Shown here piece by piece: positions 6,928 through 62,465 of a stretch of 64,000 nt of DNA; position 1 is the first letter of the stretch; every line of letters begins with the position of its first letter. The notes beneath the pieces are model-generated. The model did no database searches. It had not been told where the DNA came from and saw only the letters and a list, made by a program, of their open reading frames with translations. The position numbers were made by a program, and so were the translations under genes. Source of the DNA: Mobula hypostoma (Eukaryota); assembly GCF_963921235.1 (NCBI RefSeq), contig NC_086108.1, forward strand, positions 1,922,001 through 1,986,000, in the 5' to 3' direction.

Positions 6928-7479
6928 TTATGAACTAACTCCTTTGTTCTGCTAAGGACACACAAGTTGCTACGAGATATAAAGACAAGCTTTTCCCTTG
7001 TACCTCAGAGTTCCACACTCGTGGATTGTCTGTGATATCATGCTAAAATAAAAGATTCACTGCTCGCAGTCTGGTATCGAGCTTCATTTTAAAATTCCCT
7101 GACAAAGGGACCCGACTCTCTTTGATGTGTTTCCAAATAATAACTTTCCAAATTGAAAAAGGTTCGTCCTTTATTACAAAAGCAGTAAAGACAAACAATC
7201 TTGTAACGATAACAAAACAATGAAACTAAATTAGCGATGTAATGGTCTAATATTAGTTTGAATAGCATAACTAGGCCTTCTAATAGCATTCCAACTAGCA
7301 ATCTAGTTAATGTTCCAATGAAGTCCCAATTAGCAATCAACAAAAAAATGATCATTTCCCTGACTCACCCCCCCAACTAGACTAACCGACTAAGTATGAA
7401 AACATAATTGCTGTGTGCTCATTTGCTTCTTCCGCGCCCCAACCCACGTGACAGATTACGTAATAAATGCACTACAAAC

Positions 7480-11210: not shown

Positions 11211-11685
11211 CGTGTTGGCCTACTCCTTCTCTTCGCTCCCTTATATGAGCTATCTCCCCTCTACGTCTTCAATATTCGAAGTGCATTTATTATCACTGTA
11301 TACAAGCTTGATGTTCAGCTCCTTACAGGCATCATCTAAACATGGAAACACCATAGAACCCATTAAAATAAATAAGACTATCAAACACCCGATGTACAGA
11401 GAAAAATATATAATTGTACAAACGATACCAGTAACCAGGTATCATTCAGAACTGAAGTTGACAAAAGTAAGGCCACAGCTACCAAGCTAGATACCACTGC
11501 AGCCTGTCCTGGAGCCCGTTAGTTACAGGCCACGGCCTCAGTTCAGCGCAGAGACTAGTAAACCTCACAGTACCGTGAGCTGAACTGGCCCATTCCTCGC
11601 CTCTGGCCCCGTCACCCTGACCTTTTAAATCTAGCCTGGTGCTTAAATCGTTCAAACCTTTGGTCGTTCCGTGCTCTCAGGGCTG

Positions 11686-17850: not shown

Positions 17851-17959
17851 CCGTTCAAAGCAGTTATTCAAATACTGCAGTATTCTTTATCGTCATGTGG
17901 TGGCGCCACTGTCACACATTGTCTCCATCCCTTGAACGAGGTCAGTGCATCATTGCTCC

Positions 17960-19896
17960 ATACATCAAAGTTGCTGGTGAACGCAGCAGGCCAGGCAGCA
18001 TCTATAGGAAGAGGTGCAGTCGACGTTTCAGGCCGAGACCCTTCGTCAGGACTAACTGAAGGAAGAGTGAGTAAGGGATTTGAAAGTTGGAGGGGGAGGG
18101 GGAGATGCAAAATGATAGGAGAAGACAGGAGGAGGAGGGATAGAGCCGAGAGCTGGACAGGTGATAGGCAAAAGGGGATACGAGAGGATCATGGGACAGG
18201 AGGTCCGGGAAGAAAGACGGGGGGGGGTGACCCAGAGGATGGGCAAGAGGTATATTCAGAGGGACAGAGGGAGAAAAAGGAGAGTGAGAGAAAGAATGTG
18301 TGCATAAAAAAGAGTAACAGCTGGGGTACGAGGGGGAGGTGGGGCCTAGCGGAAGTTAGAGAAGTCAGTGTTCATGCCATCAGGTTGGAGGCTACCCAGA
18401 CGGAATACAAGGTGTTGTTCCTCCAACCTGAGTGTGGCTTCATCTTTACAGTAGAGGAGGCCGTGGATAGACATGTCAGAATGGGAATGGGATGTGGAAT
18501 TAAAATGTGTGGCCACTGGGAGATCCTGCTTTCTCTGGCGGACAGAGCGTAGATGTTCAGCAAAGCGGTCTCCCAGTCTGCGTCGGGTCTCACCAATATA
18601 TAAAAGGCCACATCGGGAGCACCGGACACAGTATATCACCCCAGTCGACTCACAGGTGAAGTGATGCCTCACCTGGAAGGACTGTTTGGGGCCCTGAATG
18701 GTGGTAAGGGAGGAAGTGTAAGGGCATGTGTAGCACTTGTTCCGCTTACACGGATAAGTGCCAGGAGGGAGATCAGTGGGGAGGGATGGGGGGGACGAAT
18801 GGACAAGGGAGTTGTGTAGGGAGCGATCCCTGCGGAATGCAGAGAGAGGCGGGGAGGGAAAGATGTGCTTAGTGGTGGGATCCCGTTGGAGGTGGTGGAA
18901 GTTACGGAGAATAATATGTTGGACCCGGAGGCTGGTGGGGTGGTAGGTGAGGACCAGGGGAATCCTATTCCTAGTGGGGTGGTGGGAGGATGGAGTGAGA
19001 GCAGATGTACGTGAAATGGGGGAGATGCGTTTAAGAGCAGAGTTGATAGTGGAGGAAGGGAAGCCCCTTTCTTTAAAAAATGAAGACATCTCCCTCGTCC
19101 TAGAATGAAAAGCCTCATCCTGAGAGCAGATGCGGCGGAGACGGAGGAATTGCGAGAAGGGGATGGCGTTTTTGCAAGAGATAGGGTGAGAAGAGGAATA
19201 GTCCAGATAGTTGTGAGAGTCAGTAGGCTTATAGTAGACATCAGTGGATAAGCTGTCTCCAGAGACAGAGACAGAAAGATCTAGAAAGGGGAGGGAGGTG
19301 TCAGAAATGGACCAGGTAAACTTGAGGGCAGGGTGAAAGTTGGAGGCAAAGTTAATAAAGTTAACGAGTTCTGCATGCGTGCAGGAAGCAGCGCCAATGC
19401 AGTCGTCGATGTAGCGAAGGAAAAGTGGGGGACAGATACCAGAATAGGCACGGAACATAGATTGTTCCACAAACCCAACAAAAAGGCAGGCATAGCTAGG
19501 ACCCATACGGGTGCCCATAGCTACACCTTTAGTTTGGAGGAAATGGGAGGAGCAAAAGGAGAAATTATTAAGAGTAAGGACTAATTCTGCTAGACGGAGC
19601 AGAGTGGTGGTAGAGGGGAACTGATTAGGTCTGGAATCCAAAAAGAAGCGTAGAGCTTTGAGACCTTCCTGATGGGGGATGGAAGTATATAAGGACTGGA
19701 CATCCATGGTGAAAATAAAGCGGTGGGGGCCAGGGAACTTAAAATCATCGAAAAGTTTAAGAGCGTGAGAAGTGTCACGAACATAGGTCGGAAGGGATTG
19801 AACAAGGGGTGATAAAACAGTGTCGAGGTATGCAGAAACGAGTACGACAACAATTGTCTCAGCTTGCTCCTGCCCCACCGAACTCGTTTCTGCATA
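17960..19896 (-). mobile_element. Penelope-like element (Neptune-type), 5'-truncated: RT + GIY-YIG endonuclease, hammerhead motif at 18018-18053
   Basis: ORF 18346-19926: MDVQSLYTSIP, GVAMGTRMGPSYA, RYIDD, Cys-rich linker PCKRNKCYTC, VIYCVRCSRCGLLYIGET. The first ~28 aa of the listed ORF come from the inverted segment and flank. Confidence 0.93.
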
Positions 19897-25889: not shown

Positions 25890-26508
25890 ATTCGAGTACA
25901 GGAGCAGGGAGGTACTACTGCAGTTGTACAAGGCCTTGGTGAGACCACACCTGGAGTATTGTGTGCAGTTTTGGTCCCCTAATCTGAGGAAAGACATCTT
26001 TGCCATAGAGGGAGTACAAAGAAGGTTCACCAGATTGATTCCTGGGATGGCAGGACTTTCATATGAAGAAAGACTGGATGAACTGGGCTTGTACTCGTTG
26101 GAATTTAGAAGATTGAGGGGGGATCTGATTGAAACGTATAAGATCCTAAAGGGATTGGACAGGCTAGATGCAGGAAGATTGTTCCCGATGTTGGGGAGGT
26201 CTAGAACGAGGGGTCACAGTTTGAGGATAGAGGGGAAGCCTTTTAGGACCGAGGTTAGGAAAAACTTCTTCACACAGAGAGTGGTGAATCTGTGGAATTC
26301 TCTGCCACAGCAAACTGTTGAGGCCAGTTCATTAGCTATGTTTAAAAGGAAGTTAGATATGGCCCTTGTGGCTACAGGGGTCAGGGGGTATGGAGGGAAG
26401 GCTGGGTTCTGAGTTGGATGATCAGCCATGATCATAATAAATGGCGGTGCAGGCTCGAAGGGCCGAATGGCCTACTCCTGCACCTATTTTCTATGTTTCT
26501 ATGTTTCT
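25890..26508 (+). mobile_element. 5'-truncated CR1, same young family as 13335-16347
   Basis: ORF 25924-26412 is nearly identical to the C-terminus of the 13-16 kb element; (TTTCTATG)n tail. Confidence 0.92.
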
Positions 26509-28797
26509 AAATGTGCAGGAAGCTGCAGATCGTAGTGGACTGAGCTCAGTACCTCCCTCCCCACTCAGTGGTATCTTAAGCAGGAGCTGCCTCCATCATA
26601 TCTTCTTGCAGCTCTGGAGGTAGAGGCCCAAAAGTTGAGGTTGTAAGTCTGGGCCAGAGATGGGAGGTTGGAGACCGGATGTTTGTGAGGTTGAAAGTCC
26701 AAGGCCAAGGGCTAGAGGCCCTGAGGCAGCCTGTCTGTGTGTGTCACGGGACACAGACAAGTGGGTCACAGTCAGGAGGGGAAAGGGGAAGAGTCAAGTA
26801 CCAGAGAGTACCCCTGTGGCTGTCCCTCTTAACAATAAGTACTCCTGTTTGAGTACTGTTGGGGGGGGACAGCCTACCTGGGGGAAGCAACAGTGGCCGT
26901 GCCTCTGCCACAGAGTCTGGCCCTGTGGCTCAGAAGGGTAAGGAAAGGAAGAGGATGGCAGCAATGATAGGGGACTCTATAGTTAGGGGGTCAGACAGGC
27001 GATTCTGTGGACGCAGGAAAGAAACTCGGATGGTAGTTTGCCTCCCAGGTGCCAGGGTCTGGAATGTCTCAGATCGCGTCCAAGATATCCTGCAGTGGGA
27101 GGGAGAACAGCCAGAGGTAATGGTACATATTGGTTCCAATGACATAGGTAGGAAAAGGGAAGGAGGTCCTGAAAACAGACTACAGGGAGTTAGGAAAGAA
27201 GCTGAGAACCAGAACCACAAGGGTAGTAATCTCGGGATTACTGCCTGTGCCATGTGACAGTGAGAGTAGGAATAGAGTGAGGTGGAGGATAAATGCGTGG
27301 CTGAGGGATTGGAGCAGGGGGCAGGGATTCAGATTTCTGGTTCATTGGGACCTCTTTTGATGGATTGCACTTGAATCCCAGAGAGACCAAGATCCTGGCG
27401 GGAAGGTTTGCTAAGGCTACTGGGGAGAGTTTAAACTAGAATTGCTGGGGGGTGGGAACCGAACTGAAGAGACGGAGGAAGAGGCGGTTGGCTCACAAAT
27501 AGAGAAAGCTTGGAGACAGTGTGAGAGGGAGAATAGGCAGGTGATAGAGAAGGGTCGCGCTCAGACTGAAGGTTTGAGATGTGTCTATTTTAACGCAAGG
27601 AATGTTAAAGCGGATGAGCTTAGTATTTGGATCAGTATTTGGAGATATGATGTGGTGGCCATTACAGAGACTTGGATGTCTCAGAGGCAGGGATGGTTAC
27701 TTCAAGTGCCAGGTTTTAGATGTTTCAGAAAGGACAGGGAGGGAGGCAAAAGAGGTGGGGGTGTGGCACTGTTGATCAGAGATAGTGTCATGGCTGCAGA
27801 AAAGGTGGACACCATGGAGGGATTGTCTACGGAGTCTCTGTGGATGGAGGTTAGGAACAGGAAGGGGTCAATAACTTTACTGGGTGTTTTTTTATAGACC
27901 ACCCGATAGTAACAGGGATATCGAGGAGCAGATAGGGAAACAGATCCTGGAAAGGAGTAATAATAACAGGGATGTTGCGGTGGGAGATTTTAATTTCCCA
28001 AATATGGATTGGCATCTCCCTAGAGCAAGGGTTTTAGGATGGGGTGGAGTTTGTTAGGTGTGTTCAGGAAGGTTTCCTGACACAATATGTAGATAAGCCT
28101 ACAAGAGGAGAGGCTGTGCTTGATCTGGTATTGGGAAATGAACATGGTCAGGTGTCAGATCTCTCAGTGGGAGAGCATTTTGGAGATAGTGATCACAATT
28201 CTATCTCCTTTACGATAGCATTGGAGAGAGATAGGAACAGACAAGTTAGAAAAGCGTTTAATTGCAGTAAGGGGAATTATGAGGCTATCAGGCAGGAAAT
28301 TGGAGGCTTAAATTGGAAACAGATGTTCTCAGGGAAAAGTACAGAAGAAATGTGGCAAATATTCAGAGGATATTTGTGTGGAGTTCTGCATAGGTACGTT
28401 CCAATGAGACAGGGAAGTTATGGTAGGGTACAGGAACCGTGGTGTACAAAGGCTGTAATAAATCTAGTCAAGAAGAAAAGAAAAGCTTACAAAAGGTTCA
28501 GAGAGCTAGGTGATGTTAGAGATCAAGGAGATTATAAGGCTAACAGGAAGGAGCTCAAGAAGGAAATTAGGAGAGCCAGAAGGGTCCATGGGAAGGACTT
28601 GGCAGGCAGGATTAAGGAAAACCCCAAGGCATTCTACAATTATGTGAAGAGCAAGAGGATGGCTGGAGTGGCTGAGTTGGCTTGACTGGAAGCTGGCTGT
28701 GTTTTGCTTGATGCCTGAATGTGGTTCGGAACCTGTTGAGGGAAAGAGAGTGGGGAAGGAACGGAAATTGCTGGGAGGGGGTCGTGTGGGTCCGGTA

Positions 28798-42790: not shown

Positions 42791-42851
42791 AGACCATGAT
42801 GAGTATTATTTTCATTTCTGTACTGCTACTATTTACTACTGTAGAGATTTA

Positions 42852-43092
42852 AGCAACACACATCAAAGTTGCTGGTGAACGCAGCAGGCCAGGCAGCATC
42901 TCTAGGAAGAGGCACAGTCGACGTTTCAGGCCGAGACCCTTCGAAGGTCTGAATGAGTCCCGATGAAGGGTCTCGGCCCGAAACGATGACTGTACCTCTT
43001 CCTAGAGATGCTGCCTGGCCTGCTGCGTTCACCAGCAACTTTGATGTGTGTTGCTTGAAATTCCAACATCTGCAGAATTCCTGTTGTTTGCG
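42852..43092. mobile_element. Penelope-derived fold-back element, 14-bp TSD (1 mismatch)
   Basis: Inverted arms centred near 42950; ACTGTAGAGATTTA (42838-42851) and ACCGTAGAGATTTA (43093-43106). Confidence 0.88.
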
Positions 43093-43180
43093 ACCGTAGA
43101 GATTTATTTTATTTTAGTGTTGTATTTGTGCTAGTTCTATTAAAGAGTATTCTTGTGGCCTTGAACACATGTGTCATCTC

Positions 43181-45741
43181 AAGCAACACACATCAAAGTT
43201 GCTGGTGAACGCAGCAGGCCAAGCAGCATCTCTAGGAAGAGGTACAGTCAACGTTTCGGGCCGAGACCCTTCATCGGGACTAACTGAAGGAAGAGTGAGT
43301 AAGGGATTTGAAAGCTGGAGGGGGAGGGGGAGATGCAAAATGATAGGAGAAGACAGGAGGGGGAGGGATAGAGCCGAGAGCTGGACAGGTGATAGGCAAA
43401 AGGGGATACGAGAGGATCATGGGACAGGAGGTCCGGGAAGAAAGATGGGGGGGGGTGGTGACCCAGAGGATGGGCAAGAGGTATATTCAGAGGGACAGAG
43501 GGAGAAAAAGGAGAGTGAGAGAAAGAATGTGTGCATAAAAATGAGTAACAGATGGGGTACAAGGGGGAGGTGGGGCATTAGCGGAAGTTAGAGAAGTCAA
43601 TGTTCATGCCATCAGGTTGGAGGCTACCCAGACGGAATATAAGGTGTTGTTCCTCCAACCTGAGTGTGGCTTCATCTTTACAGTAGAGGAGGCCGTGGAT
43701 AGACATGTCAGAATGGGAATGGGATGTGGAATTAAAATGTGTGGCAACTGGGAGATTCTGCTTTCTCTGGCGGACAGAGCGTAGATATTCAGCAAAGCGG
43801 TCTCCCAGTCTGCGTCGGGTCTCACCAATATATAAAAGGCCACATCGGGAGCACCGGACGCAGTATATCACCCCAGTCGACTCACAGGTGAAGTGATGCC
43901 TCACCTGGAAGGACTGTTTGGGGCCCTGAATGGTGGTGAGGGAGGAAGTGTAAGGGCATGTGTAGCACTTGTTCCGCTTACACGGATAAGTGCCAGGAGG
44001 GAGATCAGTGGGGAGGGATGGGGGGGACGAATGGACAAGGGAGTTGTGTAGGGAGCGATCCCTGCGGAATGCAGAGAGAGGGGGGGAGGGAAAGATGTGC
44101 TTAGTGGTGGGATCCCGTTGGAGGTGGCGGAAGTTACGGAGAATAATATGTTGGACCCGGAGGCTGGTGGGGTGGTAGGTGAGGACCAGGGGAACCCTAT
44201 TCCTAGTGGGGTGGCGGGAGGATGGAGTGAGAGCAGATGTACGTGAAATGGGGGAGATGCGTTTAAGAGCAGAGTTGATAGTGGAGGAAGGGAAGCCCCT
44301 TTCTTTAAAAAATGAAGACATCTCCCTCGTCCTAGAATGAAAAGCCTCATCCTGAGAGCAGATGCGGCGGAGACGGAGGAATTGCGAGAAGGGGATGGCG
44401 TTTTTGCAAGAGACAGGGTGAGAAGAGGAATAGTGACTCTCACAGCTATCTGGACTATTCCTCTTCTCACCCTATCTCTTGCAAAAACGCCATCCCCTTC
44501 TCGCAATTCCTCCGTCTCCGCCGCATCTGCTCTCAGGATGAGGCTTTTCATTCTAGGACGAGGGAGATGTCTTCATTTTTTAAAGAAAGGGGCTTCCCTT
44601 CCTCCACTATCAACTCTGCTCTTAAACGCATCTCCCCCATTTCACGTACATCTGCTCTCACTCCATCCTCCCACCACCCCACTAGGAATAGGGTTCCCCT
44701 GGTCCTCACCTACCACCCCACCAGCCTCCGGGTCCAACATATTATTCTCTGTAACTTCCGCCACCTCCAACGGGATCCCACCACTAAGCACATCTTTCCC
44801 TCCCCCCCTCTCTCTGCATTCCGCAGGGATCGCTCCCTACACAACTCCCTTGTCCATTCGTCCCCCCCATCCCTCCCCACTGATCTCCCTCCTGGCACTT
44901 ATCCATGTAAGCGGAACAAGTGCTACACATGCCCTTACACTTCCTCCCTTACCACCATTCAGGGCCCCAAACAGTCCTTCCAGGTGAGGCATCACTTCAC
45001 CTGTGAGTCGACTGGGGTGATATACTGCGTCCGGTGCTCCCAATGTGGCCTTTTATATATTGGTGAGACCCGACGCAGACTGGGAGACTGCTTTGCTGAA
45101 CATCTACGCTCTGTCCGCCAGAGAAAGCAGAATCTCCCAGTGGCCACACATTTTAATTCCACATCCCATTCCCATTCTGACATGTCTATCCACGGCCTCC
45201 TCTACTGTAAAGATGAAGCCACACTCAGGTTGGAGGAACAACACCTTATATTCCGTCTGGGTAGCCTCCAACCTGATGGCATGAACATTGACTTCTCTAA
45301 CTTCCGCTAGGCCCCACCTCCCCCTCGTACCCCATCTGTTACTCTTTTTTATGCACACATTCTTTCTCTCACTCTCCTTTTTCTCCCTCTGTCCCTCTGA
45401 ATATACCTCTTGCTCATCCTCTGGGTCACCCCCCACCCCCCCATCTTTCTTCCCGGACCTCCTGTCCCATGATCCTCTCGTATCCCCTTTTGCCTATCAC
45501 CTGTCCAGCTCTTGGCTCTATCCCTCCCCCTCCTGTCTTCTCCTATCATTCTGGATCTCCCCCTCCCCCTCCCACTTTCAAATCCCTTACTCACTCTTCC
45601 TTCAGTTAGTCCTGACGAAGGGTCTCGGCCTGAAACGTCGACTGCGCCTCTTCCTAGAGATGCTGCCTGGCCTGCTGCGTTCACCAGCAACTTTGATGTG
45701 TGTTGCTTGAATTTCCAGCATCTGCAGAATTCCTGTTGTTT
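43181..45741. mobile_element. 2.56-kb fold-back Penelope insertion (two inverted copies of the GIY-YIG/3' half), 14-bp TSD
   Basis: ORFs 43578-44321(-) and 44567-45310(+) are near-identical 247-aa products; symmetry centre about 44433-44452; ACATGTGTCATCTC at 43167-43180 and 45742-45755. Confidence 0.95.
45608..45643 (+). ncRNA. Minimal hammerhead ribozyme motif in PLE 3' terminus
   Basis: AGTC-CTGACGA-AGG GTCTCGG CCT-GAAA-CG-TC-GACT. The same motif lies on the minus strand at 18018-18053 and 46931-46966. Confidence 0.75.
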
Positions 45742-46829
45742 ACATGTGTCATCTCCCTTTGTTTGCGAATATTTGGGAGAAAACCCTGAAATGAACCAGG
45801 AAAGAACACATGGTGAATTTTTAAATCATTTTTGTTTACAGTTACATTATTGTGGAATGCATCTCTGTGATCTAGTGTTGTTGTATTTATTCTGTTGTGT
45901 AACTTTTGTTAATGTAGGTTTATATTTGTAATGTGCTGTTGCTGCTGCAGAAAAGCTCATTAACATGCCGTTTATACCTTGGCGATAAACTTGTACTTGA
46001 AATGTAGCCAGTTCACCAATAAATTCTGCAACTAAAATATTTTAACGTTGGTCCCTTGTTCCTTTCTGATTCATCACCAAGAGGTTTCCACAAACAAAGG
46101 AGGCACTGTACACATGGAAAATGCTGTAAGAAATCACTTTAATAGTTATATAAAGAATGTAGAAAGAAAGAGAGTTAATAATGTTAAAAGATAAAATTAT
46201 ACTATCAACCAGTTCCCTAAGCCACTACACACAATGACCTGCCAGACGGAACTGCAGATGCCAACAGGTTTTCTACACACTTTCTCTCTCTCTGCCTCTC
46301 TCTCCCCTCTTTCTTTCCCTCTCTCTCCCCTCTTTCTTTCCCTCTCTCTCTTCCCCCTCCCTCTTTTTCTGTCTCTCGGTCTCTCCTCTCTCACTCACTC
46401 TCTTTCTCTCTGCCTGTCTGTCTCTCAGTCTCTCGAAGTCCTTATTGCCAGCTCTTACCATTAGTCACAATCCTGCCTAAAGGAAGATAACCCCTTGTAC
46501 AAAGAAATCGCCCCTTTTTATACCCTCCAATACCGTTTTCTCGAATCCTTTTCCAGACAAATACAATTGTCACCATTATCTACTCTCAAGGCTGTACACT
46601 GGCACTCACTCTCAGTTCTCTGAACAAGGCTGAGGTCTGGTTCCCTTGTACTTTCTCAAAACATTCCCACGTCCCAGACTAACACCAATTTGTCTAACAA
46701 CTTCCATTTTGTGTTACACATTTTCACATTTGACCATATTCCAAAGAGGAGTCGAATTTAACTCTTTCCTTACAAATGCGCAACAGGTCAGGCAGCAACT
46801 CTGGAAAGAAAGCCAACATCTCGATACAT

Positions 46830-47815
46830 CGCAAACACGAGGAAATCTGCAGATGCTGGAAATTCAGGCAACACACATCAAAGTTGCTGATGAACGCAGC
46901 AGGCCAGGCAGCATCTCTAGGAAGAGGTACAGTCGACGTTTCAGGCCGAGACCCTTCGTCAGGACTAACTGAAGGAAGAGTTAGTAAGAGATTTGAAAGT
47001 TGGAGGGGGAGGGGGAGATCCAAAATGATAGGAGAAGACAGGAGGGGGAGGGATGGAGCCAAGAGCTGGACAGGTGATTGGCAAAAGGAATACGAGAGGA
47101 TCATGGGACAGGAGGCCCAGGGAGAAGGAAAAGGGGGAGGGGGGGAAAATCCAGAGGATGGAGAGCAGGCAAGGAGTTATAGCGAGAGGGGCAGAGGGAG
47201 AAAAAAGAGAGAGAGGAAAAAGGGGGGGGGGGAATAAATAAATAAATAAATAAATAATGGATGGGGTACGAAGGGGATTAATGGAAGTTTAAGAAGTCAA
47301 TGTTCATGCCATCAAGTTGGAAGCTACCCAGACAGAATATAAGGTGTTGTTCCTCCAACCTGAGTGTGGCTTCATCTTTACAGTAGAGGAGGCCGTGGGT
47401 AGACATGTCAGAATGGGAATGGGATGTGGAATTAAAATGTGTGGCCGCTGGGAGATCCTGCTTTCTCTGGCGGACAGAGCGTAGGTGTTCAGCAAAGTGG
47501 TCTCCCAGTCTGTGTCGGGTCTTGCCAATGTATAGAAGGCTGCATCGGGAGCACCAGACGCAGTATATCACCCCAGTCGACTCACAGGTGAAGTGTCGCC
47601 TCACCTGGAAGGACTGTTTGGGGCCCTGAATGGTGGTAAGGGAGGAAGTGTAAGGGCATGTGTAGCACTTGTTCCGCTTACAAGGGTAAGTGCCAGGAGG
47701 GAGATCAGTGGGGAGGGATGGGAGGGATGAATGGACAAGGGAGTCGCGTAGGGAGTGATCCCCGGGGAAAGCAGAAAGAAGGGAGGAGGGAAAGATGTGC
47801 TTAGTGGTGGAATCC
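46830..47815 (-). mobile_element. 5'-truncated Penelope element (GIY-YIG + 3' terminus)
   Basis: ORF 47278-47604 VIYCVWCSRCSLLYIGKT; possible TSD CTCGATACAT/CTTGATACAT (46820-46829, 47816-47825). Confidence 0.88.
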
Positions 47816-48024
47816 CTTGATACATTGGTTTATTATGGTCACATGTACCAAGAACAGAGAAAAATTGTCATCCATACAGATCATATCAACACAGCCATTC
47901 GCTGAGGTAGTACAAGAAATGGGAAACAATAACAGAATGCAGAATAAGTGTTACGGTCACAGAGGAAGTACAGTGCAGGCAGACAGTAGGGTCAAAGTCA
48001 TAATGAGATAAATTGTGAGGTTAA

Positions 48025-50168: not shown

Positions 50169-50422
50169 ATGGCCGAACTCTCCATCAATTTCAGGCGGCC
50201 CCATGAGTTTGACAGAAGTCGCGCTCATAAGCAGGGCAAGGGGCTGGACGCCAAAACCGGGCTGGAGGCCGAGCGACTGGACAGCGGCATTGACTCCATG
50301 CCGGAGGGCAGCGTGAGCAGCGTTACCGACCAAATGGACAACCTCAGTGTCAACTGTCAGAGCGGGGAAGAGCCGGCACCGTCCCACAACTGGACACAGT
50401 TCAGGAGTGAGGACGATGATAC
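50169..50422 (+). CDS. NFKBIA: NF-kappaB inhibitor alpha-like (IkBa), coding exon 1 of 6
   Basis: MAELS...ERLDSGIDSM (IKK/beta-TrCP degron, 50280-50297), NES-like VTDQMDNLSV, ends SEDDD(T); donor GTGAGT at 50423, phase 2. Confidence 0.9.
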
Positions 50423-53400
50423 GTGAGTCTTCAACTTTCATTACAGCGCCCTCCTCCCCGCTTTGATGCAGAGGGTCCCAACTTTTCATGCGCGCAACCC
50501 CCCCCCCACCAGCAGCAGTATGATGTAAAGGGTTCCAACTTTTGATGCAGCGCGCCCCCTCCTTCCCCCGCCTTGATACAACTTATCTTGAAGCAGATGC
50601 TATGCGTGGCATTTAAGAAACTTTTTGGGCAACTCAATAGGCAGGGATGCGGGGATATGGATCCTGTAGAGAGAGCGCGAATCAGTTAAAGTTATGATGG
50701 TCTGCACAGCCATTGTGGGCCGAATGGCCGGTTTCTGTCCCGATGAACGGCCGTCACGTCGACTCTTTGTTCATCTCCATAGATGCTGCCTGACCTGCTG
50801 AGTTCACCCAGCGTTTTGTGTGTTTCTGTGCTGTGTCTACTTTTTTTCTACAATATATCTTTTTGATATTACCTATCTTTTGATGCACGCCGATACCCAC
50901 AAATGATTAAATACAGGCTTGGGAATATAAAAAAAGATGCATTTCTAAATCTTAAAATTGAATTTGTAGCTCAGATTGAGGGTTCTTGCATTGGAAGAGT
51001 TTTTTGTTAAACATTGGAATTTTCCCCACTCGGTTAAGCTGACTAGTTACGCTCTCCGCCCGTTATCTGCAAATTAAGACAGTGAGTGGGGGTCCTTGAC
51101 ACGACCTCGGTTTGTCCGTCGACAGCACCGCAGAAAATGCAGCAGACCCTCATTCACGCACTCTGGTCTTGGGAACATGCCCCGTCCCCCAGCCGAAGCT
51201 GGAGACCAGCCCGCAATCATCTGGCGATCACCACGAGCCCCTGATACTGGCCGTCATTCTAGTCTGATCTGCTTCTGACCGCAGCACCACAAGAGTTCTC
51301 ATCTGTGTCGTGGAGGGATATAGGCATGGTGTAGGTGGAGGGATTGGTGTTTGGGTGTTTCTGATTTGCTGTGCGCGACATTACGGGCCGAATGGCCCGT
51401 CCCTGCGCCGTACTCTTTGTTCTAGGTTAGTAACAAGTGTGATGTGTGTGGCTTTGGAAGAATTGAAATCTTCAAACACTTTGGACAAGCGGTGGGGGCG
51501 GACAATGGAATCTACGTGGGGTTGACTCAGTATGAGTGAGTGTGTGTAAGGGGAGAGAGTGAGAGTGGGGAGGGGGGTTAAGGGAAGTTTAATCTCCCAA
51601 AGTAACACACACAATGCTAGAAGAACTCAGCAGGTCAGACAGCATGCAAAGGTCCACGGACACCTCGGTTAACGGTCGGGGTTCGTGGTAAGATGCAAGG
51701 CTGAAACCTCCCCACTGGGGAAATGACGCTTCGAGCCGAGACCCTTCTTCAAGTCCTGAAACGTTGACTGGAACTCTTTTCCATAGATGCTGCCAGACCT
51801 GCTGAGTTCCTCCAGCATCTTGTGTGTGTGTGTGTTGCTTTGGATTTCCAGCGTTTGCAGAGTTCCTCCTGTTTCCAATCTAGACTGGGGAACCTGCGGT
51901 TGACAGACTAATTAAATCTGCACATTCCAAGCCTGCTGACCGGTGTTTCTTCACTTCCCGGTCTCCTGTTTTATCGCGTGGAGCAATACCATGAAGGGAG
52001 GGCTCCGTGGAAACCCTGGGGAGGAAAATAAGGGAGCCAGCCAGACCCGCAACTCCCCGGTGCAGCTAACGCTTAAATGACCGCTCTCGGACAATAGGAA
52101 GTAACCCGGCTCTGCAGCTGGAAATTCCTCCATCAAGTCACCCACCCTGGTCTCCTCACTTCGCTTCCCATCCGGCTACTTTTGTTTTGCTAAAACTGCA
52201 TTTTAAAAAAAACTACAAAGAAATGAAGAAGGAAATCAGGACAATTTGCAATCCCCTTCCTTCTGCGATCTGCAAATTCCCGATCACGACTCGGGGGGCG
52301 TGGGGGGTAGGGGTATTAAGTGAGTCTTCTCGCTGCCTCCTAATTCGGAGCGTCGATGTCTGTTTGCGAACAAACTCCAAACTCCAGTTGCCTGCTGGAA
52401 AGAGACCTCCTCACCTTTTGAAAAAGAACTGCAGTTCTGGCAGAAAAAAGATGCAGCGGAGGGGACGCGAAATGAAGAGACGCCGGGATCATCTGATAGA
52501 GGGTATTTACAACTACTGACCCGTTTGGGAAGGCGAACTTGAGGGCCGAGCCAAGTAAAACGGAAGAGTGAAGGAAAGGGAATTTTCTTTACCCGGAGAG
52601 CGGTGAGAATGAGGAAGCTGATGCAATGGGAAGTGGCTGAAGTGTGATACAGATGTATTTAACGGCAAGTTGGAGCGACATTGCGATTGGGGCCGATAAT
52701 AAGACAGTGGGGGAGGGGATGCCAGCATCATGAGGCAAGGGCCGAATGGTCTCCACCACAATCAGCTTTGTGTCGCGTTAACCGTGCGTGGAAATCACTG
52801 TTCTTCATAAAGTCCAAGGAAGTTTTCCCTTAGGCAAAAAGTGTTGGGGAAATCCCGGTACTTTTTTTGGAAAAGAAGGAAGAGTATCTTTGCTCTAGTG
52901 TGTGTGTTTCTGTGTGTGTGTGTGTGTGTGTGTCTGTGTGTGTCTGGATGTGTGTGTGTTTCTGTGTGTGTGTGTGTGTCTGTGTGTTTGTGTGTGTGAT
53001 GTCTGTACACAGAGACGGGAGGGGGAAGCGGGTGTAAAAGAGATCTACGCGCGCTCTCACGCAGGATTAGTCAGAATTTCTGCCTGGCTGCTGCCGACCT
53101 AAACTGGTAAATAAATATTTGCTGATGTCCCCACCCTGCTGAACGACCAGTTGTAACGGGAACCCGCTGGGACCTTGGGCATGAATTCCGCGTGAATGCC
53201 CGGTATTCCAAACCTTCCGACCCACCCCAGGGATTAATTGAGGGATATTCCTGGCGAGATTTGGCTCTATTTCAAAGCGGGGTGTAAACTTATTTTTATT
53301 TTGAAAGCCGACCTTTGGGGAAACCCCATTGGAAATATTTAGATTCCAATGTAAATAGGGCTGGGGGGTGGGGGGGTGGGTGGGGGTGGAATGACTGCCT

Positions 53401-53899
53401 CGTCCTTCACAGGACACCGAAAGAATTACCAATGCTAAAATTAGCCCCTTCCTCCCTCGTAGCCTGGATTAACCCACCACAGGCCTATCAAGCATCTGCT
53501 TTGGGATCATGCTTTGCAAACTTCCCGCCAAGACCAGTGCCATCATCAAACAAGAGGGTGGAACCCAGCGGGTCTGTGGAGGGACACGGACAGTCGTCTA
53601 CAGATGCTGCCCAACCTGCTGAGTTTTCAAGCCTGTGCTTTGCTCAGGATAACCACCATAAACTGCAGGTGTTGGAAACCTTGGGCAACACGCACTAACC
53701 ACTCAGCAGGTCAGGCAGCATCAATGGAGAGAGTAAACTGTGGTCGTTTCCAGCTGGGACCCTTCCTCAGGACTGGAAGCAGAGGGGGAAGAAGTAGAAA
53801 CAGAAAGGCGGACTCTTCACAGACCTCTGTAGATGCTGCCTGACCTGACGGGCATTTTGTGTGTGCTGCTCCTGGTTCTCAGCAATTGCGAGATCTCTC

Positions 53900-54570
53900 C
53901 AGGGTATCAGTAACTGGTTACCTGAATTGACTTTATTTCTTACATCCTGCATATACATGAGTAAAAATCTTCATGTTACATCTCCGTTCAAATGTGCACT
54001 TATTGTAATTTATAATAAATATTATGTACAACAGGACAGTCAATATAACATAGAAATAAAATTGTATCAGCATGAATTAATCAGTCTGATGGCCTGGTGG
54101 AAGAAGCTGTCCTGGAGCCCGTTGGTTCTGGTTTTTATGCTGCGGTACCGTTTCCCGGATGGTAGCAGCTGGAACAGTTTGTGGTTGGGGTGACTTGGGT
54201 CCCCAGTGATCCTTTGGGTCCATTTTACACACCTGTCTCTGTGAATGTCCTGAATGGTGGGAAGTTCACATCTACAGATGCGCTGGGCTGTCCACACCAC
54301 TCTCTGCAGAGTCCTGCGATTGAGGGAAGTACAGTTCCCACACCAGGCAGTGATGCAGACAGTCAGGATGCTCTCAGTTATGCCCTTGTAGAAGTCATTA
54401 GAATTTGGGAGCCCATACCAAATTTCCTCAACCGTCTGAGGTGAAAGAGGCGCTGTTGTGCATTTTCACCACACAGCCGGTGTGTACAGACCACGTGAGA
54501 TCCTTGGTGATGTGTGTGCTGAGGAACTTAAAGCTGTCCACCCTCTCAAACCCAGATCCATTCATGTCAA
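53900..54570 (-). mobile_element. Rex1/Babar LINE 3' part (intron 1)
   Basis: ERVDSFKFLSTHITKDLTWS; HPNHKLFQLLPSGKRYRSIKTRTNGLQDSFFHQAIRLIN. Confidence 0.8.
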
Positions 54571-54704
54571 TAGTTATTATTGTCACATGTACAGTGGTTT
54601 TTTTTGTTTGCATGTTGTCCATTCTTCCTAGAGTTAGTTCATTCATTCTCCCAGAACTGGGAGGTCAAATTTCTCACCCACTGCTTTTCTATAGCACTTT
54701 TTAA

Positions 54705-55512
54705 AGTGAGGACAGCAAATGCGATGTTAGCATTCATTTCAAGAGGAATATAAAAGCAAGGATGTAATGTTGAGGCTTTATAAGGCGCTGGTGAGACCGC
54801 ACTTGGAGTACTGTGAACAGTTTTGGGCCTCTTATCTGATAAATAATATGCTGACATTGGAGAGGGTTCAAAGGAGGTTCACAGAAATGATTCTGGGATT
54901 GAAAGGCTTGTCATATGAGGAGCATTTGATGGCTCTGGGCCTGTACTCACTAGAATTCACAAGCGTCAGGCGTGACCTAATTGAAACCTGTTGAATGTTG
55001 AAAGGCCTTGACAGAGTGGATGTGGGGAGGATGTTTCCTATGGTGGGGGAGTCTAAGATCGGAAGACACAGCCTCAGAATAGAAGGGTATCTTCTTAGAA
55101 CCGAGATGAGGAGGGATTACTTTAGCCAGAGAGTGGTTATCAGATAGTCTATCAACCTCTGCCTTAAATATACTCAATGACTTGGCTTCCACAGCCTCCC
55201 GTGGTAACGAATTCCACAAATTCACCACTCTCTGGCTAAAGAAATTCCTCCTCATCTTTGTTCTAAAAGGACATCCCACTATTCTGAGGCTGTGTCCTCT
55301 CATCCTAGATTCACCCACCGTAGGAAATGTCTTCTCCACATTCACTCTACTGAGACCTTTCAACGTTCGATGTTTCAGTGAGGTTTCCCCTCATTCTTCT
55401 GAACTCCGGCGAATACAGGCCCAGAGCCATCAAATGCTCTTCAGGTGTCAAGCCTTTCAATCCCAGAATCATTTCCGTGAACCTCCTCTGAACCTTTTCC
55501 AATGTCAGCATA
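54705..55512. mobile_element. Two CR1 3' fragments of one family in inverted orientation (+ 54705-55138; - 55147-55512)
   Basis: MLTLE(R/K)VQRRFTEMILGLKGL..EEHLMALGLYS is encoded on both strands. Confidence 0.85.
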
Positions 55513-55703
55513 AAGACTGACAAACAACTGGTGTGTAAAGGACAGATTGTGCACATTTAATAAGTAATTAATAAACTGGATGATTAGGGAACATCAATGA
55601 TTAGATGGATAAATTTTTTTTTAATTTTAAATTTAAAAAATTGACAACATGAGTTGCAAAGTCCTTGAAAGTGAGTCTGTAGGTTGTGGAATCAGTTCAG
55701 AGT

Positions 55704-56165
55704 TGTGGTGAGTGAAGTTATCCACACTGGTTCAGGAGCCTGATGGTTGTGGGGTAATAACTGTTCCTGAACCTGCTGGTGTGGGACCTGAGGCTCATTG
55801 TGGGGAGTGAAGTTATCCACATTGATTTGGGAGCCTGATGGTTGAAGAGTAATAACTGTTCCTGAACCTGGTGGTGTGGGACCTGAGGCTCATTGTGGTG
55901 AGTGATGTTATCCACACTGGTTCAGGAGCCTGATGGTTGTGGGGTAATAACTGTTCCTGAACCTGGTGGTGTGGGACCTGAGGCTCATTGTGGTGAGTGA
56001 AGTTATCCACACTGGTTCAGGAGCCTGATGGTTGTGGGGTAATAACTGTTCCTGAACCTGGTGGTGTGGGACCTGAGGCTCATTGTGGTGAGTGAAGTTA
56101 TCCACACTGGTTCAGGAGCCTGATGGTTGTGGGGTAATAACTGTTTCTGAACCTGGTGGTGTGGG
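55704..56165. repeat. 95-bp tandem repeat (about 4.8 copies) derived from a Rex LINE 3' coding end
   Basis: Period 95; the minus strand reads RSHTTRFRNSYYPTTIRLLN. Confidence 0.93.
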
Positions 56166-56940
56166 TTTGTTCTCTTTCAACAAAGGTGATTTAATTGAGG
56201 TGTGTAAAATTACAAGAGGCAGGGACGGGGTGACACATGGCAGAGAAGGAAGGAAGTTTAGGTAAATTGGTGATTCAAGTTCAAGTATATTGTTGTCAAA
56301 AGTGAACATACCCAGAGTATAAATGTCATTAGAATTATCTTTTTGCAGTAGCAACTCTCTCCATAACAAGAAGGGACAAACATAAGTTAATGTAAATATA
56401 AGTGATGTAAGTAAAGCGAGGATACGGAAATGTGCTCTCGTGTTCGGAGACTTGGGCTCTGGCTCTGGCAGTAAAGCCAGAAACCCTCTTCACGCATCTA
56501 CAAACAACCTTATTGAGCACACGTAGAACTGTCACCCAAATGCCCCAGTTTGTAACCAGCAGGGTCCCTTGATGGGGCCGAACAGCCTCCTTTCTCATAA
56601 ATCCGAGCCTCCACGTTGCTGTACGAATCTTGTTGCAGAGGATAGGCCATAAGGAAGTTCTTCTGGATTTAACAGATCCCTTTTGAACTTCCTTTTCAAC
56701 GTTGTGAAACCAATGGGGCCTTTTTACAGTAAGAATTGATTCAGGAAATTCCCTTTGCTCTTGGTGAGGTGAAAGCGATTCTCTCTCAGACTCTTCGTGC
56801 TTTACGGCTGCTGGGTAGGCTGGAAATGCTTACTCACTCCTCCATACAAGGGCTGCCTGCATACTTACAGAACTTCCTGCCCTGCCCACGGTTGCTCTTT
56901 GCCCCTCTCTAATTTTTCTCTTTTTTAAAATTTCATTCAG

Positions 56941-57040
56941 GTTCCTTCACCTGGCCATTCTGCACAATTACCCAGATATTGCCATCTTCCTCGTGAGGTC
57001 TAACACGTCTGTCATGGACCTCCGCAACTCGTCCCAACAG
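56941..57040 (+). CDS. NFKBIA: NFKBIA-like exon 2 (ankyrin repeat 1)
   Basis: Pyrimidine tract + CAG acceptor; (T)FLHLAILHNYPDIAIFLVRSNTSVMDLRNSSQQ; donor GTGAGT. Confidence 0.92.
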
Positions 57041-57632
57041 GTGAGTTTGTCCTGCACACCTTACATGCCCCACCATATTCACCAGTCAGCTTCTGGGAGC
57101 TGGAGGGGGGGCGGTGGGAGGGGTCCACAGATCCATGATCTCTGGCAATTATCTACAGATGTACCATGGACAGCATTCTGACTGGATGTTCACAACCTGG
57201 TGGGGCACAGGATCAGGGAAAAAGCTGCAGAGGGCCGTAAGTTCAGCCTGCTCCATTGCGGACAGTAGCCTCTCCACCTTCGAGTACATCATCAGAAGGA
57301 GATGGCATCCATCATTCAGGACCCTCACATGCTGTCTTTTTATTACTCGCATCAGGGACGAGGTACAGGAGCCTAAAGGAACACACTTGATTTGCTAACT
57401 AGAAGACCACAATCCATGTGGATTGGAGGTCACTGATAACCAACACTGGCTGTCCACAGGGGTGCGTGCTTAGCCCACTGCCCTACTCTCTCTACAGCCA
57501 TGACTGTGTGGCCAGGCACAGCTCAAACACCATCTGTAAACTTGCCGAAGATACACCCATTGTTGGCAGAATTTCGGATGGTGACAAACGGTTGCTTTTT
57601 CTAATTTGTTCCCTCTTTTTCCTCTTCTCCAG

Positions 57633-57849
57633 TGTCCGCTGCACTTGTCAGTTATCATGGGTCTGCCGGCGGTGACCAGGGAGCTGGCGCAGGCAGGTGC
57701 CGACCTGGAGTGCACAGACAACCTGGGCAACACGGCCCTGCATCTGGCCTGTGAGCAGGAAAGCCTGGAGTGCATGGACTCGCTCCTCAATCCAACCCTG
57801 ACCAGAACCGGGAGCCAGCGCCAAGACCTAGAAAAGCGCAATTACAATG
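57633..57849 (+). CDS. NFKBIA: NFKBIA-like exon 3 (ankyrin repeats 2-3)
   Basis: CPLHLSVIMG...GADLECTDNLGNTALHLACEQ...NYN(G); CAG acceptor, GTACGT donor, phase 1. Confidence 0.93.
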
Positions 57850-58921
57850 GTACGTATTGGCTTGTCTGCTGCATCAAGGGGGAGGTGTACGAGGCCAGGA
57901 TGACTGGCTTTATCTTTATTAGATTTATATGTACACCATATTCCTATCTACGGAATTTCTATTACCTGGATTATAAAGGACATAGACTTTTCAGATTCAG
58001 ATTTACTATCACTGATATATAGATAGTGAATTCTGTTGAGATGAAGGATTTTGGCCTGAAACATCAACTATTCATTCTTCTCCATGGATGCTGCCTGACC
58101 TGCTGAGTTCCTCCAGCATTTGGTGTGTACTCCTCTGGATTTCCAGCATCTGCAGAACCTCTTGTGTTTCTGTTAGTGAAGCGTATTGTCTGTGTCAATG
58201 AGAACTACAGTCTGAGGATTACACTGGGGGCAGCTCGCAACTGTTGCCATGCCTCTGGTGCTGACACAGCAAGCCCACAGCCCACTAGCTCCAAACCAGA
58301 GGGAGGAAACCCCTGCGATCACAGGGAGAGCATTCACCCTGACCCTGACCCTGATCCTGACCCTAACCCTGACCCCCATCTTACAGTTGGCATGCTCTGT
58401 CATCTTTGGGGTTTTTCCGGGGGTCAAGTTTTAATTCTTAATGATCATTTATTTTAACATTTAAACAAAGATCCAGACATTTGAAACCGAGTGAAGAGCT
58501 AAGAAGCAAAGCAGAGATTTAATGAAAGAAAAGAAAATATTGTGCCTTTGAAAAATCCATCACCATTATAATCCAGATAAGAGATATTCCGTAGATAAGA
58601 GTAAACCTACCTACATTGCACAATTCCATCATGTGGGTAATTGTGAACGGTGAGCCAAAGAGAAATGAGAAACAGTTCTGTAGCTGATACACGGCTTTAT
58701 GACAGTAAGTGGGAACGAACTATCACTTACTGTGAAAAATACAAGTTTGTTAAAAGGTATAAATTATGATTAAGCTACGACTTTAGTCTCACATTAATTC
58801 AGCTAATACGTTATAAAAAATATTAACAACAATGGATTCCAAGAGCGCTGTGAAGCATTGTGCTAACCACAATACTGCCTCAATGAATCAAATACTAAAA
58901 CAGTTCCCATTGTGGTTACAG

Positions 58922-59010
58922 GCTACACGTGTCTACACATTGCAGTGATGAGAGGACATTATGAAGCTGTTCAGAAACTGCTAGATTCAGGAGCCAACAT
59001 TAACACTCAG
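58922..59010 (+). CDS. NFKBIA: NFKBIA-like exon 4 (ankyrin repeat 4), 89 nt
   Basis: (G)YTCLHIAVMRGHYEAVQKLLDSGANINTQ; CAG/GTATGA boundaries; absent from the ORF track. Confidence 0.92.
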
Positions 59011-59692
59011 GTATGAGTTTTTTCCAACGATACCTGTAGAGGTGTCTGTACGACAGCACAGTTATTTTCCACTCGAGAGATACGGGTGGCACTGATTTAC
59101 TATCATTTACTCATCCCTTATGCAGAAGATGGGGAGCCACCAACCTCAGTCCCTGGAGAAGATGCTCCCAACATTCTGTTGGGTCAGAATTCCCAGGAAC
59201 TACTTTAAAAGAAGGAGATAAACCCTCTTTTTTTGAATGGGTTCCATGGTGTTTCTTTGTTTCTTGGCTGTCTGTGGGAAGACAAATCTCAGGGTTGTAT
59301 ACTGCATACGTACTTTGAAACTTTGAGTGCCTTTGGACTGAGAGGAAACCCATGTGGTCACGGGGAGAACATACAAACTCCTTGCAGATAGTAGCAGCGG
59401 CAATTGAAGCCCGATCCTGCCCCTGGCATGCTGTAAAGCATTACGCAAACTGCTACACTACCATAGCCGTTGCTGGCTGCTCCATGAGTTTCTGTTTGAT
59501 AGTAACCTCGGGATGGAGGTGGAACTGTATGGCACTGAGGGGAGGTGGTGACCATCCCACTTCCTGAAGATGGCTTAAGTTTGTTGAGTTCTTTTGTCAA
59601 ATGCACAAGCACAGTGAGGTACAGGTACAATGAAAAAGACTTGCAGCAGCATCACAGGGACAAAGGGACAGATAACACACAGAAAATACAGC

Positions 59693-60520
59693 ACGTGTGT
59701 GTGTGTACGTGTGTGTGTGTGTACGCGCGTGTGTGTGTGTACGTGTGTGTGTGTGTGTACGTGTGTGTGTGTACGTGTGTGTGTATACACGTGTGTGTGT
59801 GCGTGTGTATGTGTGTGTGTGTGTACATGTGTGTGTGTATGTGTGTGTGTGTACGTGTGTGTGCGTGTGTGTGTGTGTACATGTGTGTGTACGTGTGTGT
59901 GTACGTGTGTGTGTGTGTACGCGTGTGTGTGTGTGTACGTGTGTGTGTGTGTGTACGTGTGTGTGTGTGTACGTGTGTGTGTGTACGTGTGTGTGTATAC
60001 ACGTGTGTGTGCGTGTGTATGTGTGTGTGTGTGTACATGTGTGTGTACGTGTGTGTGTACGTGTGTGTGCGTGTGTGTGTGTGTACATGTGTGTGTACGT
60101 GTGTGTGTACGTGTGTGTGTACGTGTGTGTGTGTGTACGTGTGTGTGTGTACACGTGTGTGTGTGCGTGTGTACGAGTGTGTGTGCGTGTGTGTGTATAC
60201 ACGTGTGTGTGCGTGTGCATGTGTGCGTGTGTGTGTGCGTGTGTACGTGTGTGTGTGTACGTGTGTGTGTGTGTGTACGTGTGTGTGTGTAAGTGTGTGT
60301 GTACGTGTGTGTGTGTACGTGTGTGTGTGTGTACGTGTGTGTGTGTGTGTGTACGTGTGTGTGTGTGTACGTGTGTGTGTGTGTGTGTGTACGTGTGTGT
60401 GTGTGTACGTGTGTGTGTACGTGTGTGTGTACGTGTGTGTGTGTACGTGTGTGTGTGTGTGTACGTGTGTGTGTGTGTGTGTACGTGTGTGTGTGTGCGT
60501 GTACGTGTGTGTGTGTATGT
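59693..60520. repeat. ~830-bp compound (GT)n microsatellite punctuated by AC/GC/AT
   Basis: Near-continuous purine-pyrimidine alternation in intron 4; a shorter GT tract lies at about 52897-52998. Confidence 0.98.
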
Positions 60521-62031
60521 ATAGCAAGGGCATCTGAGACTTTTGCACTGTACTGTGGTAATGTTATGTATTGCACTGTACTGCTGCCACACAAACAACA
60601 AATTTCATGACGTGTGAGTGATGATAAAGCTGATTTTGATCTGGGTCTCTATTGAAAGTGGAAAGGGGCAGGGAGAGGGGAATCGTGGTTGGGAAAAGGG
60701 GAAGTGGGAGGGAAGGGAGTGAGAAGCATCAGAGAGACATTCTGTGATGATCAATAAACCAATTGTTTGGAATCAAATGACTTTGCCTGGTGTCTCAGGG
60801 CTGGCTGTGTCTGCACCCACGCCACCCTGCCCCTGGCACTCCCTCTCTGCCACCTGTCCCACTCCCCTCTTGTGGAACAATGACTGAACATTCCCAACAT
60901 AATTTGTCCTACCAGATTTACAAACTCTCTCTCCACTTCACATTGACAAATGCTGTATAAACGTCTGAGGCACCCGAGATACATGTGCCAAAGACTTCTG
61001 CAGAGTACGGTCCATCAGACATAAGTTAGACAAGACAGTGAATTCGTGCTAATGCTTGGAGGTGTTTGGGGTCTTACTGTACGCAGGCACCAATGTCAGC
61101 CCCAGGAAGGAACTTCCGTTTGTACAGTTCCCTCTCTTGAGGTGTCTCAAGCTTTTGGCAACCAGTAAGATTCAGATTCATGTATTTATCACAAGTACAT
61201 CAGAATACACAATGAAATGTGCCATTTGTGGTAGCAACCAACACAACCTGAGGATGTGACGCCACACATTGAGGTGCTTACATAACATGCATGCCCACAA
61301 CATTCAGCAGAACAACACTAGCAAAAGCACAAAACAAGTTCCTTCTACCCCACCCACCCGGTCACGCACATCCCCAGTCCAGGACAGGCCCCTCCAGACT
61401 TCCATCCGGTCTCCGAGGTGTCCCAGGTTAATCTGCTGTGTGATGAACTGAGGCTGCGGCTGTGGCCTGCTCTAGCTAATTTGAACTTCGTGTCTGTGGA
61501 CTCACTTTCGTTCTGAGTGCTGTTGCTTGCTCTTACTGTTTACACAATTTGTTTTTTCTCCCCCTCTCTCTGTACATTGGATGTTTGCTGAATTTTTTAA
61601 TGGGTTCTTTTGCATTTCTCTGTTTCGTCGCTGCCTGTAAGGAGATGAATCTCAAGGAAATATGATGTTTAGATAATTTGATAATAAATACACTTTGAAC
61701 TTCGAATTAATCTTTCAGACTGGATTCTAAGTTCATGTATGTTATCACAAACTACTTTGACAATCATTTTCTTGTGGGCATTTACAGGAAAATAAAACAA
61801 TATAGAATTTTATACATAAACAAAGACTGACAAATGACCAATCTACAAAAGAAGACAAGCTAGTCAATTGTTTTTGAAATGCACACATAACTCCCCCCGC
61901 TCCACCTGGAACTGGTGCCTTCAGAGGGGAGGGGTGATGTGTTGCAGAGGCGAGGAGGTGGGGGGCGAATCTCTCAGATCCGGCAGTACCTCTGCCTTCA
62001 GAGTTGTTCATGGTCCTCTCCCTTTCAACAG

Positions 62032-62292
62032 GAACCGAACAGTGGGAGAACCCCCTTGCACTTGGCGGTCGAGTTCCAGCGCCGCGACGTGGTGCAGCTC
62101 CTCATCGAACGCGGAGCGGACGTGAACCGACTGATGTACAACAGCTGCACGGCCTTCCACCTCACCGCCGGCCGGCCAGACCTGGAGATCCAGAACCGGC
62201 TGTTCAAGCTGACCGACTCCTTGCTGATCCCACTGTACGAACCCTCGGACTCGGAGTCCGAGGCGGACTGCGATACCCAGTCGGACTGTGAT
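62032..62292 (+). CDS. NFKBIA: NFKBIA-like exon 5 (ankyrin repeats 5-6 + PEST)
   Basis: EPNSGRTPLHLAVEFQ...GADVNRLMYN...GRPDLEIQ...EPSDSESEADCDTQSDCD; CAG/GTGAGT boundaries. Confidence 0.94.
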
Positions 62293-62465
62293 GTGAGTGT
62301 TGACTTTGCTGTGCTCTGATCCGGGGGGGGCGCAGGGGGGGTGGTCTTTGATGTGATGAAATGGCCTGAGGTGTTTTGCAGGGATTTCCTCTAACAAACT
62401 CCAAGTGAGCTGTTGACTCTGCTCTCTCAGACCAATAGTCTGGGTTCTCATCCTGTGACCTTTGA

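Follow-up and report, generated by a model that had tools for sequence, protein, structure and literature searches.

Tailed and tail-less arms paired head to head in a palindromic Penelope-like insertion and in the family to which it belongs

The 64-kb window (the whole stretch of DNA analysed, 64,000 nucleotides) contains a palindromic insertion made of two near-identical, 5'-truncated copies of a Penelope-like element, which stand head to head with both element 3' ends outward at one 14-bp target-site duplication. One arm ends in a 33-nt tail and the other stops at an inner, tail-less site. The layout itself is already published for these elements, as described in PMC8557442 and PMC3846280; what the present analysis adds is a rule obtained from a census of the family, namely strict pairing of one tailed with one tail-less arm, either of which can be the longer. 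As the origin of such pairs we consider it fairly probable that both target nicks prime copying, one per start site, on RNA of one source, and that the two cDNAs are then joined at the centre.

Structure of the insertion

The following features were assigned, those marked (translation) from the translated reading frames.

43167–43180, no strand: left target-site duplication, 14 bp, whose last 2 bases fit the element too
43181–44434, minus strand: left arm, a 5'-truncated Penelope-like copy with RT thumb, Zn-finger linker, GIY-YIG endonuclease and 3' UTR, ending at the inner, tail-less 3' site
43245–43282, minus strand: minimal-hammerhead-like motif of the left arm, core altered at 43276 and 43250
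43578–44434, minus strand: C-terminal ORF remnant of the left arm, open, without start and without RT core (translation)
44434/44435–45741, plus strand: right arm, a 5'-truncated Penelope-like copy ending at the outer, tailed 3' site
44435–44453, plus strand: central spacer, 19 nt, element sequence of the right arm only
44435–45310, plus strand: C-terminal ORF remnant of the right arm, open (translation)
44906–44932, plus strand: CX4CX2C linker of the right arm (translation)
45017–45064, plus strand: GIY-YIG core (VIY...YIG with CxxC) of the right arm (translation)
45607–45644, plus strand: minimal-hammerhead-like motif of the right arm, with CUGAnGA, stem II, GAAAC-GUC and an open stem I
45709–45741, plus strand: tail, 33 nt, right arm only (sequence comparison)
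45742–45755, no strand: right target-site duplication, 14 bp, whose first 2 bases fit the element too

The insert between the two duplications measures 2561 bases, in agreement with the 2.56-kb palindrome of the original prediction, and comparison of the window with itself, for which a self dot-plot had been suggested, gave a single inverted match across 43179–45710. The arms, described beforehand as near-identical, about 1.25 kb long and 5'-to-5', align over 1258 columns, of which 26 are substitutions and 3 are gaps (97.7% identity), and the same alignment bore out the predicted stop of the left arm. Base 44434 at the centre is common to both arms (a 1-base overlap), and the tailed right arm is longer than the left by 20 bases. 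The 19-nt spacer does belong to one arm only, with coordinates one base to the right of the 44434–44452 first given, and the extra terminal bases of the right arm, first put at about 35, number 33. The spacer is read through uninterrupted by a copy of the same element family at 17959–19846.

The 14-mer that was predicted to bracket the whole structure perfectly is identical at its two positions, which are its only occurrences on either strand of the window; the chance of such a match is about 3.5e-9 per given place, or 1.4e-6 allowing 400 offsets. With one duplication round the whole and no second one at the centre, the view that the palindrome arrived in a single integration event is upheld. 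In both arms, translation shows an RT thumb ahead of the CX4CX2C linker and places a histidine pair, the stop and the 3' UTR downstream of the GIY-YIG core with its CxxC. Judged by its reading frames, which have neither start nor RT core, the insert is dead.

Element family and clade

A genome search with the right arm returned 6087 first-look candidates, and the best 39 other copies are 98–99% alike. The sibling L046 (L046:2429-6290), 97.7–97.8% alike to the arms, is a full-length family copy with a 344-nt pseudo-LTR, a 1016-codon stop-free frame, a 3' UTR and a tail. Its 1016-aa frame matched the Pfam families RVT_1 (E 3.9e-5) and GIY-YIG (E 2e-4), in each case narrowly missing the curated cut-off; this copy and the element motifs in the arms sustain the identification of the palindrome as Penelope-like. 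Pfam gave no matches on the 294-aa remnant of the right arm, though the motifs can be read directly in its translation. Partial tandems of the pseudo-LTR occur in L046, L082, L106, L111 and L116.

An ORF with RT and C-terminal GIY-YIG, a pseudo-LTR, 5' truncation, an inverted 5' copy and a one-sided tail together point to an endonuclease-bearing Penelope-like element (for a general description of these elements see PMC8969392). Since a CX2-5CxxC linker between RT and endonuclease indicates Neptune or Nematis (PMC8557442), and only Neptune and Poseidon are reported from vertebrates in the accessible text of bioRxiv 10.64898/2026.07.22.740005, the family is probably a young Neptune-type element, a placement made by linker and vertebrate clade distribution. 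It is like the Neptune clade in the order of RT, CX2-5CxxC linker and C-terminal GIY-YIG with CCHH, and in the partial pseudo-LTR tandem of L046, but unlike it in that the palindrome site shows no microsatellite targeting.

Minimal hammerhead motifs are known in Penelope-like elements (PMC4209133). In the studied insertion the minimal-hammerhead-like motif of the terminal repeat is preserved in the right arm and altered in the left, and its cleavage is putative. Hammerhead stems I and II appeared on folding of the 3' end, which gave no stability beyond that of shuffled sequences (z -0.40, 0.45 and -0.89), and an Rfam scan of the window, hammerhead-like motif included, returned no matches.

The junctions in other sequence data

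Contigs from organism A, possibly the source (2 of 2 runs, one sample), span the tail, the duplication and the flank with no differences, which argues at the right junction that the structure is not an assembly artefact, as had been maintained. A search for the empty allele, also proposed beforehand, found no empty-site contig among the organism A contigs compared (7 of 7 and 8 of 8, one sample). For the related organism B (2 runs, one sample), there is a contig of 1002 nt whose match begins precisely at the first duplicated base, 45742; over 319 flank bases it shows 5–6 differences from organism A. Another 101 letters of this contig have no fit to the element tail. Their number would be accounted for by the 73 unique left-flank bases together with a short stretch of the adjoining repeat, and the contig is thus consistent with an empty site. 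The divergence of the flanks between the two organisms (5–6 of 319) and that of the arms (2.1%) are not decisive for dating.

Reads of all 4 runs were swamped over the palindrome by family copies and yielded nothing locus-specific. Loose peaks of read ends were seen at 45741, the end of the tail, in all 4 runs, and at 45707–45708 in the organism B runs. A search with the unique right flank listed no RNA data set containing it, and run X13, guessed to be RNA, had no depth over 45761–46059; neither result has a bearing either way on transcription, dsRNA or editing.

Census of the family

The census comprised 133 other loci in four samples of best-scoring matches, which are not random draws: A) 39 of the 39 other top matches of the right arm; B) 21 of the 39 other full matches of the left arm; C) 37 matches of a tailed 322-nt query, the own locus and 2 already sampled loci being left out; and D) 36 loci matching a tail-neutral 290-nt query, with the own locus and 2 already sampled ones left out and 2 matches falling in one locus. 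Reference positions were counted along L046 from base 2773. An arm ending at or after reference 3500 was called tailed, the tail-less ends lying mostly at 3465–3487, and a partner was defined as an inverted 3' arm beginning at most 70 bases from the 5' end, with L037 assigned by hand.

The head-to-head layout proved routine in this family, being present in about half of the sampled copies (A, 15/39; B, 9/21; C, 19/37; D, 20/36; total, 63/133), and the rarity implied by the original prediction is not supported. Of the 58 single-piece pairs, 8 have arms that overlap by at least 1 kb, one of these 8 being among the 73 short-query loci; the studied pair is accordingly one of several long ones.

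One tailed and one tail-less arm were found in 61 of the 63 pairs, the 2 exceptions being without a duplication; for sample D, mixed pairing was seen in 19 of 20 pairs against 9.8 expected (P 2e-5). Exact duplications of 13–15 bp flank 51 of the 63 pairs, and 55 have at least 12 bp. Once the 2 same-class pairs and the 5 multi-piece ones are left out, 56 single-piece mixed pairs remain. They divide evenly: in 28 the tailed arm exceeds its partner in length, and in 28 the tail-less arm does, by up to 2.2 kb; the corresponding numbers in the short-query samples are 16 and 20. Centres lie at most 50 bases from symmetry in 9 of these 56 pairs, compared with 3.7 by permutation (P 0.008), and this near-symmetric excess looks as if both polymerases had reached one RNA end.

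The 70 solo copies divide into 59 tailed and 11 tail-less ones. The existence of the latter, of which only 4 of 11 have an exact duplication of at least 8 bases, means that the inner site is used without a partner. The mean target overlap is 1.4 bases at tailed ends (n=51) and 1.5 at tail-less ends (n=52), and an A stands six bases outside 33 of 55 tailed and 29 of 55 tail-less ends (background 0.29), the flank bias being a hint only, as the register in which it is counted shifts with the target overlap. Tailed and tail-less ends agree in target overlap and resemble each other in flank bias, as two ends primed in the same way would.

Several further copies are worth noting. A miniature palindrome of the same family and layout lies at 42844–43093, 73 bases left of the studied one, with a tail-less left arm, a tailed right arm and a 13-bp duplication containing 1 mismatch. 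A second and older one, at 6664–6930 (85–92% to the reference), has its left arm tailed and its right arm tail-less, and an exact 14-bp duplication. In L037 (G000:C21:69785764-69794049) a miniature palindrome is nested in the main arm of a larger pair, while in L106 and L111 the inverted arm precedes the pseudo-LTR and a full-length unit. L151 (G000:C64:54645452-54653952) is a young and nearly perfect palindrome: its arms show 0 differences over the 592 bases compared, and the gap at its centre is about 2 bases wide. The young tail-less copy at 17959–19896 (1.9 kb) carries a 44-nt inverted 5' piece that is not a 3' arm, and no duplication was found around it.

Allele history

At family-polymorphic non-CpG columns up to reference 3200, arms of one pair were discordant 9 times, against 69.7 expected for random partners, whereas in the last 265 compared bases (reference 3200–3465) there were 68 discordances against 163.9; both counts leave out the studied pair. 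In the 57 pairs with at least 200 shared bases, 74 of 835 comparisons were discordant (223 expected), and the private rate was 0.64%. The few discordant alleles up to reference 3200 indicate one source for the arm bodies. The last few hundred bases of pairs are often patchy, and some of the columns involved may reflect recurrent mutation. A discordant 3' block fixed on one arm class, as by a pseudo-LTR jump, was considered and rejected: by eye, it is the tail-less arm that carries the block in L050 and the tailed one that does so in L176.

The studied arms differ at 4 of 18 family-polymorphic non-CpG columns, with 3.5 expected for random partners. Over reference 2230–3080 they show 4 non-CpG differences in 787 positions; there, none of 100 other copies is closer to the left arm than its partner and 1 is equal, and on the right arm's side 8 copies are closer and 24 equal. 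Over reference 3081–3465 there are 9 non-CpG differences in 334 positions, and copies closer than the partner number 155 of 185 for the left arm and 66 of 185 for the right. We infer that, in one arm, the last 400 nt or so were acquired from another haplotype of the family, via a template switch or later gene conversion.

Origin of the palindrome

If both nicks prime copying, as we favour, the element endonuclease would cut the two strands of the target with a 14-base stagger. Reverse transcription would then be primed by each nick, using the outer (tailed) start site in one case and the inner (tail-less) site in the other. Both cDNAs would halt after about 1.25–1.3 kb, and their halted ends would be joined, overlapping by one base. 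The template of both primings was probably a single source; the simplest case is one RNA read twice, the alternative being two RNAs from one expressed copy. The inner site may be used first and the still-free 33-nt tail second, with the second polymerase displacing the first cDNA. Penelope-like enzymes presumably leave their template RNA intact. Reading one RNA twice, inner site first, would be the simplest account of the strict pairing and of the excess of symmetric centres. We advance only tentatively, with more reserve than conviction, that one RNA is read twice and that the start sites are fixedly divided between the nicked strands, about half of all insertions being born as one-tailed palindromes; since the 3' discordance is above what identical birth predicts, this reading would need added switching or conversion.

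The two-nick model is read from finished insertions rather than intermediates, and its in vitro support comes from another clade. In vitro, the purified protein of the Poseidon-clade element PAc (Poseidon of Anolis, Frangieh et al. 2024, PMC11167929) cuts both target strands and extends them, initiating at two neighbouring 3' sites that delimit the tail, as they would here; besides the difference in clade, the main text of that paper does not derive head-to-head pairs. Since the strands showed no difference in start site in vitro (PMC11167929), strict tailed/tail-less pairing is not predicted by that activity alone. In L1 twin priming (PMC9148063) both overhangs likewise prime on element RNA and the inversion lies inside one duplication, but the halves are different parts of the RNA and form no palindrome, whereas here the primings would be 33 bases apart at the 3' end and the arms overlap almost fully. 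An L1-type twin-priming structure, which needs non-overlapping halves, was rejected for the studied arms with their overlap of about 1250 bases; the mechanism may work like L1 twin priming without being that structure.

The elements of Craig et al. 2021 (PMC8557442) and Arkhipova et al. 2013 (PMC3846280) share with the present family a head-to-head inverted copy at the 5' end, a tail at one end, a unit enclosed in one short duplication and a hammerhead-like motif near the 3' end, PMC8557442 describing a 5'-truncated, inverted copy next to the element's 5' end and a tail of 30–40 bp on one side. They differ in that the rotifer duplications are 8–10 bp and the arms about 200 bp, versus mostly 13–15 bp and 1.25 kb here, and the accessible text of the two papers gives no pairing counts. 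No model of two primings at separate start sites was found for Penelope elements in the literature searched, older subscription papers and supplements being outside its scope.

Fold-back by self-priming (PMC3846280), in which a tail-primed cDNA folds at its 3' end and copies itself until the endonuclease trims it at the inner site, with unequal arms arising by later deletions at the unstable centre, is in our judgement unlikely. It yields one tailed and one tail-less end by construction and explains shared alleles, near-symmetric centres (9/56) and the 0 differences in 592 bases of L151; the studied pair, too, has the nested geometry, its tailed arm being longer, and in the coding part the partner is the left arm's nearest relative (0 of 100 copies closer, 1 equal). 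However, 28 of 56 pairs have a tail-less arm that exceeds the tailed one in length; a simple fold-back cannot make these pairs, and each would require a second, later deletion. Moreover, the studied centre offers 1 base only as a fold-back primer, solo tail-less copies exist (11/70), and the studied arms differ at polymorphic columns as random partners do (4 of 18; 3.5). Of the two mechanisms first proposed, fold-back as stated is therefore not supported by the 28 of 56 pairs, while template switching stays among the candidates.

Still less probable, in our estimate, is a jump of the polymerase from the sense RNA to an antisense RNA or DNA of the same source, ending at the inner site. Such a jump permits either arm to be longer and alleles to be shared, antisense templates were proposed for these elements in the discussion of PMC3846280, and the patchy discordance indicates that switching or conversion happens. 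Against it, the tail-less end has the target overlap and flank bias of the tailed end, as if primed alike, and both sites are starts of RT on sense RNA in vitro, as reported in PMC11167929.

That two independent insertions, or later recombination between copies, united the arms is very improbable: the family is abundant (6087 first-look candidates) and the 3' parts of the studied pair represent different haplotypes, but there is one duplication round the whole and none at the centre, the organism B contig has no element at the right junction, and the one-duplication layout recurs in 55 of 63 pairs. An assembly or fold-back read artefact can practically be dismissed, for although assemblies are known to be at risk from long inverted repeats (PMC8557442), the arms differ by 26 substitutions, several at alleles common to other copies, the structure is bracketed by a 14-bp duplication and by unique sequence left and right, and contigs of 2 of 2 organism A runs contain the right junction without differences.

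As one of many, the single locus has little weight by itself. How Penelope-like elements make inverted structures and a one-sided tail is posed as an open question in PMC8557442, and the census bears on it, since the strict pairing of tailed with tail-less arms, whichever of them is the longer, constrains the mechanism sharply. One RNA read twice, if true, would replace the self-priming explanation and explain the purpose of the tail.

Genomic neighbourhood

The predicted position of the palindrome, about 4.4 kb upstream of an innate-immune regulator, was borne out. An IkB-like gene on the plus strand (50169–62319) has its start codon at 50169, 4414 bases past the right duplication, ankyrin exons at about 57585–58022 and 61891–62319, and an acidic tail; the IkB-alpha chain 1ikn_D aligned with it over 85 of 88 residues (E 1.6e-23). 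Its first exon contains what we take to be a DSGxxS-type degron.

For arms of such identity and spacing a hairpin or the predicted cruciform is plausible, and this potential would hold equally for many other loci in this genome. None of the results pointed to a cruciform, to dsRNA or to an influence of the palindrome on the IkB-like gene. A genome rich in such palindromes is a place to measure the persistence of near-perfect inverted repeats in a vertebrate germ line.

Other repeats were noted in the window. An older tailed copy of the family (88%), inverted relative to the right arm, lies at 46830–47816, between the palindrome and the IkB-like gene. Another repeat has a self-inverted stretch at 54847–55512 (75% identity), inverted copies of another repeat at 13337–13964 and 25890–26509 are 96.7% alike, and a tandem array of units of about 61 bp occupies 11672–13206.
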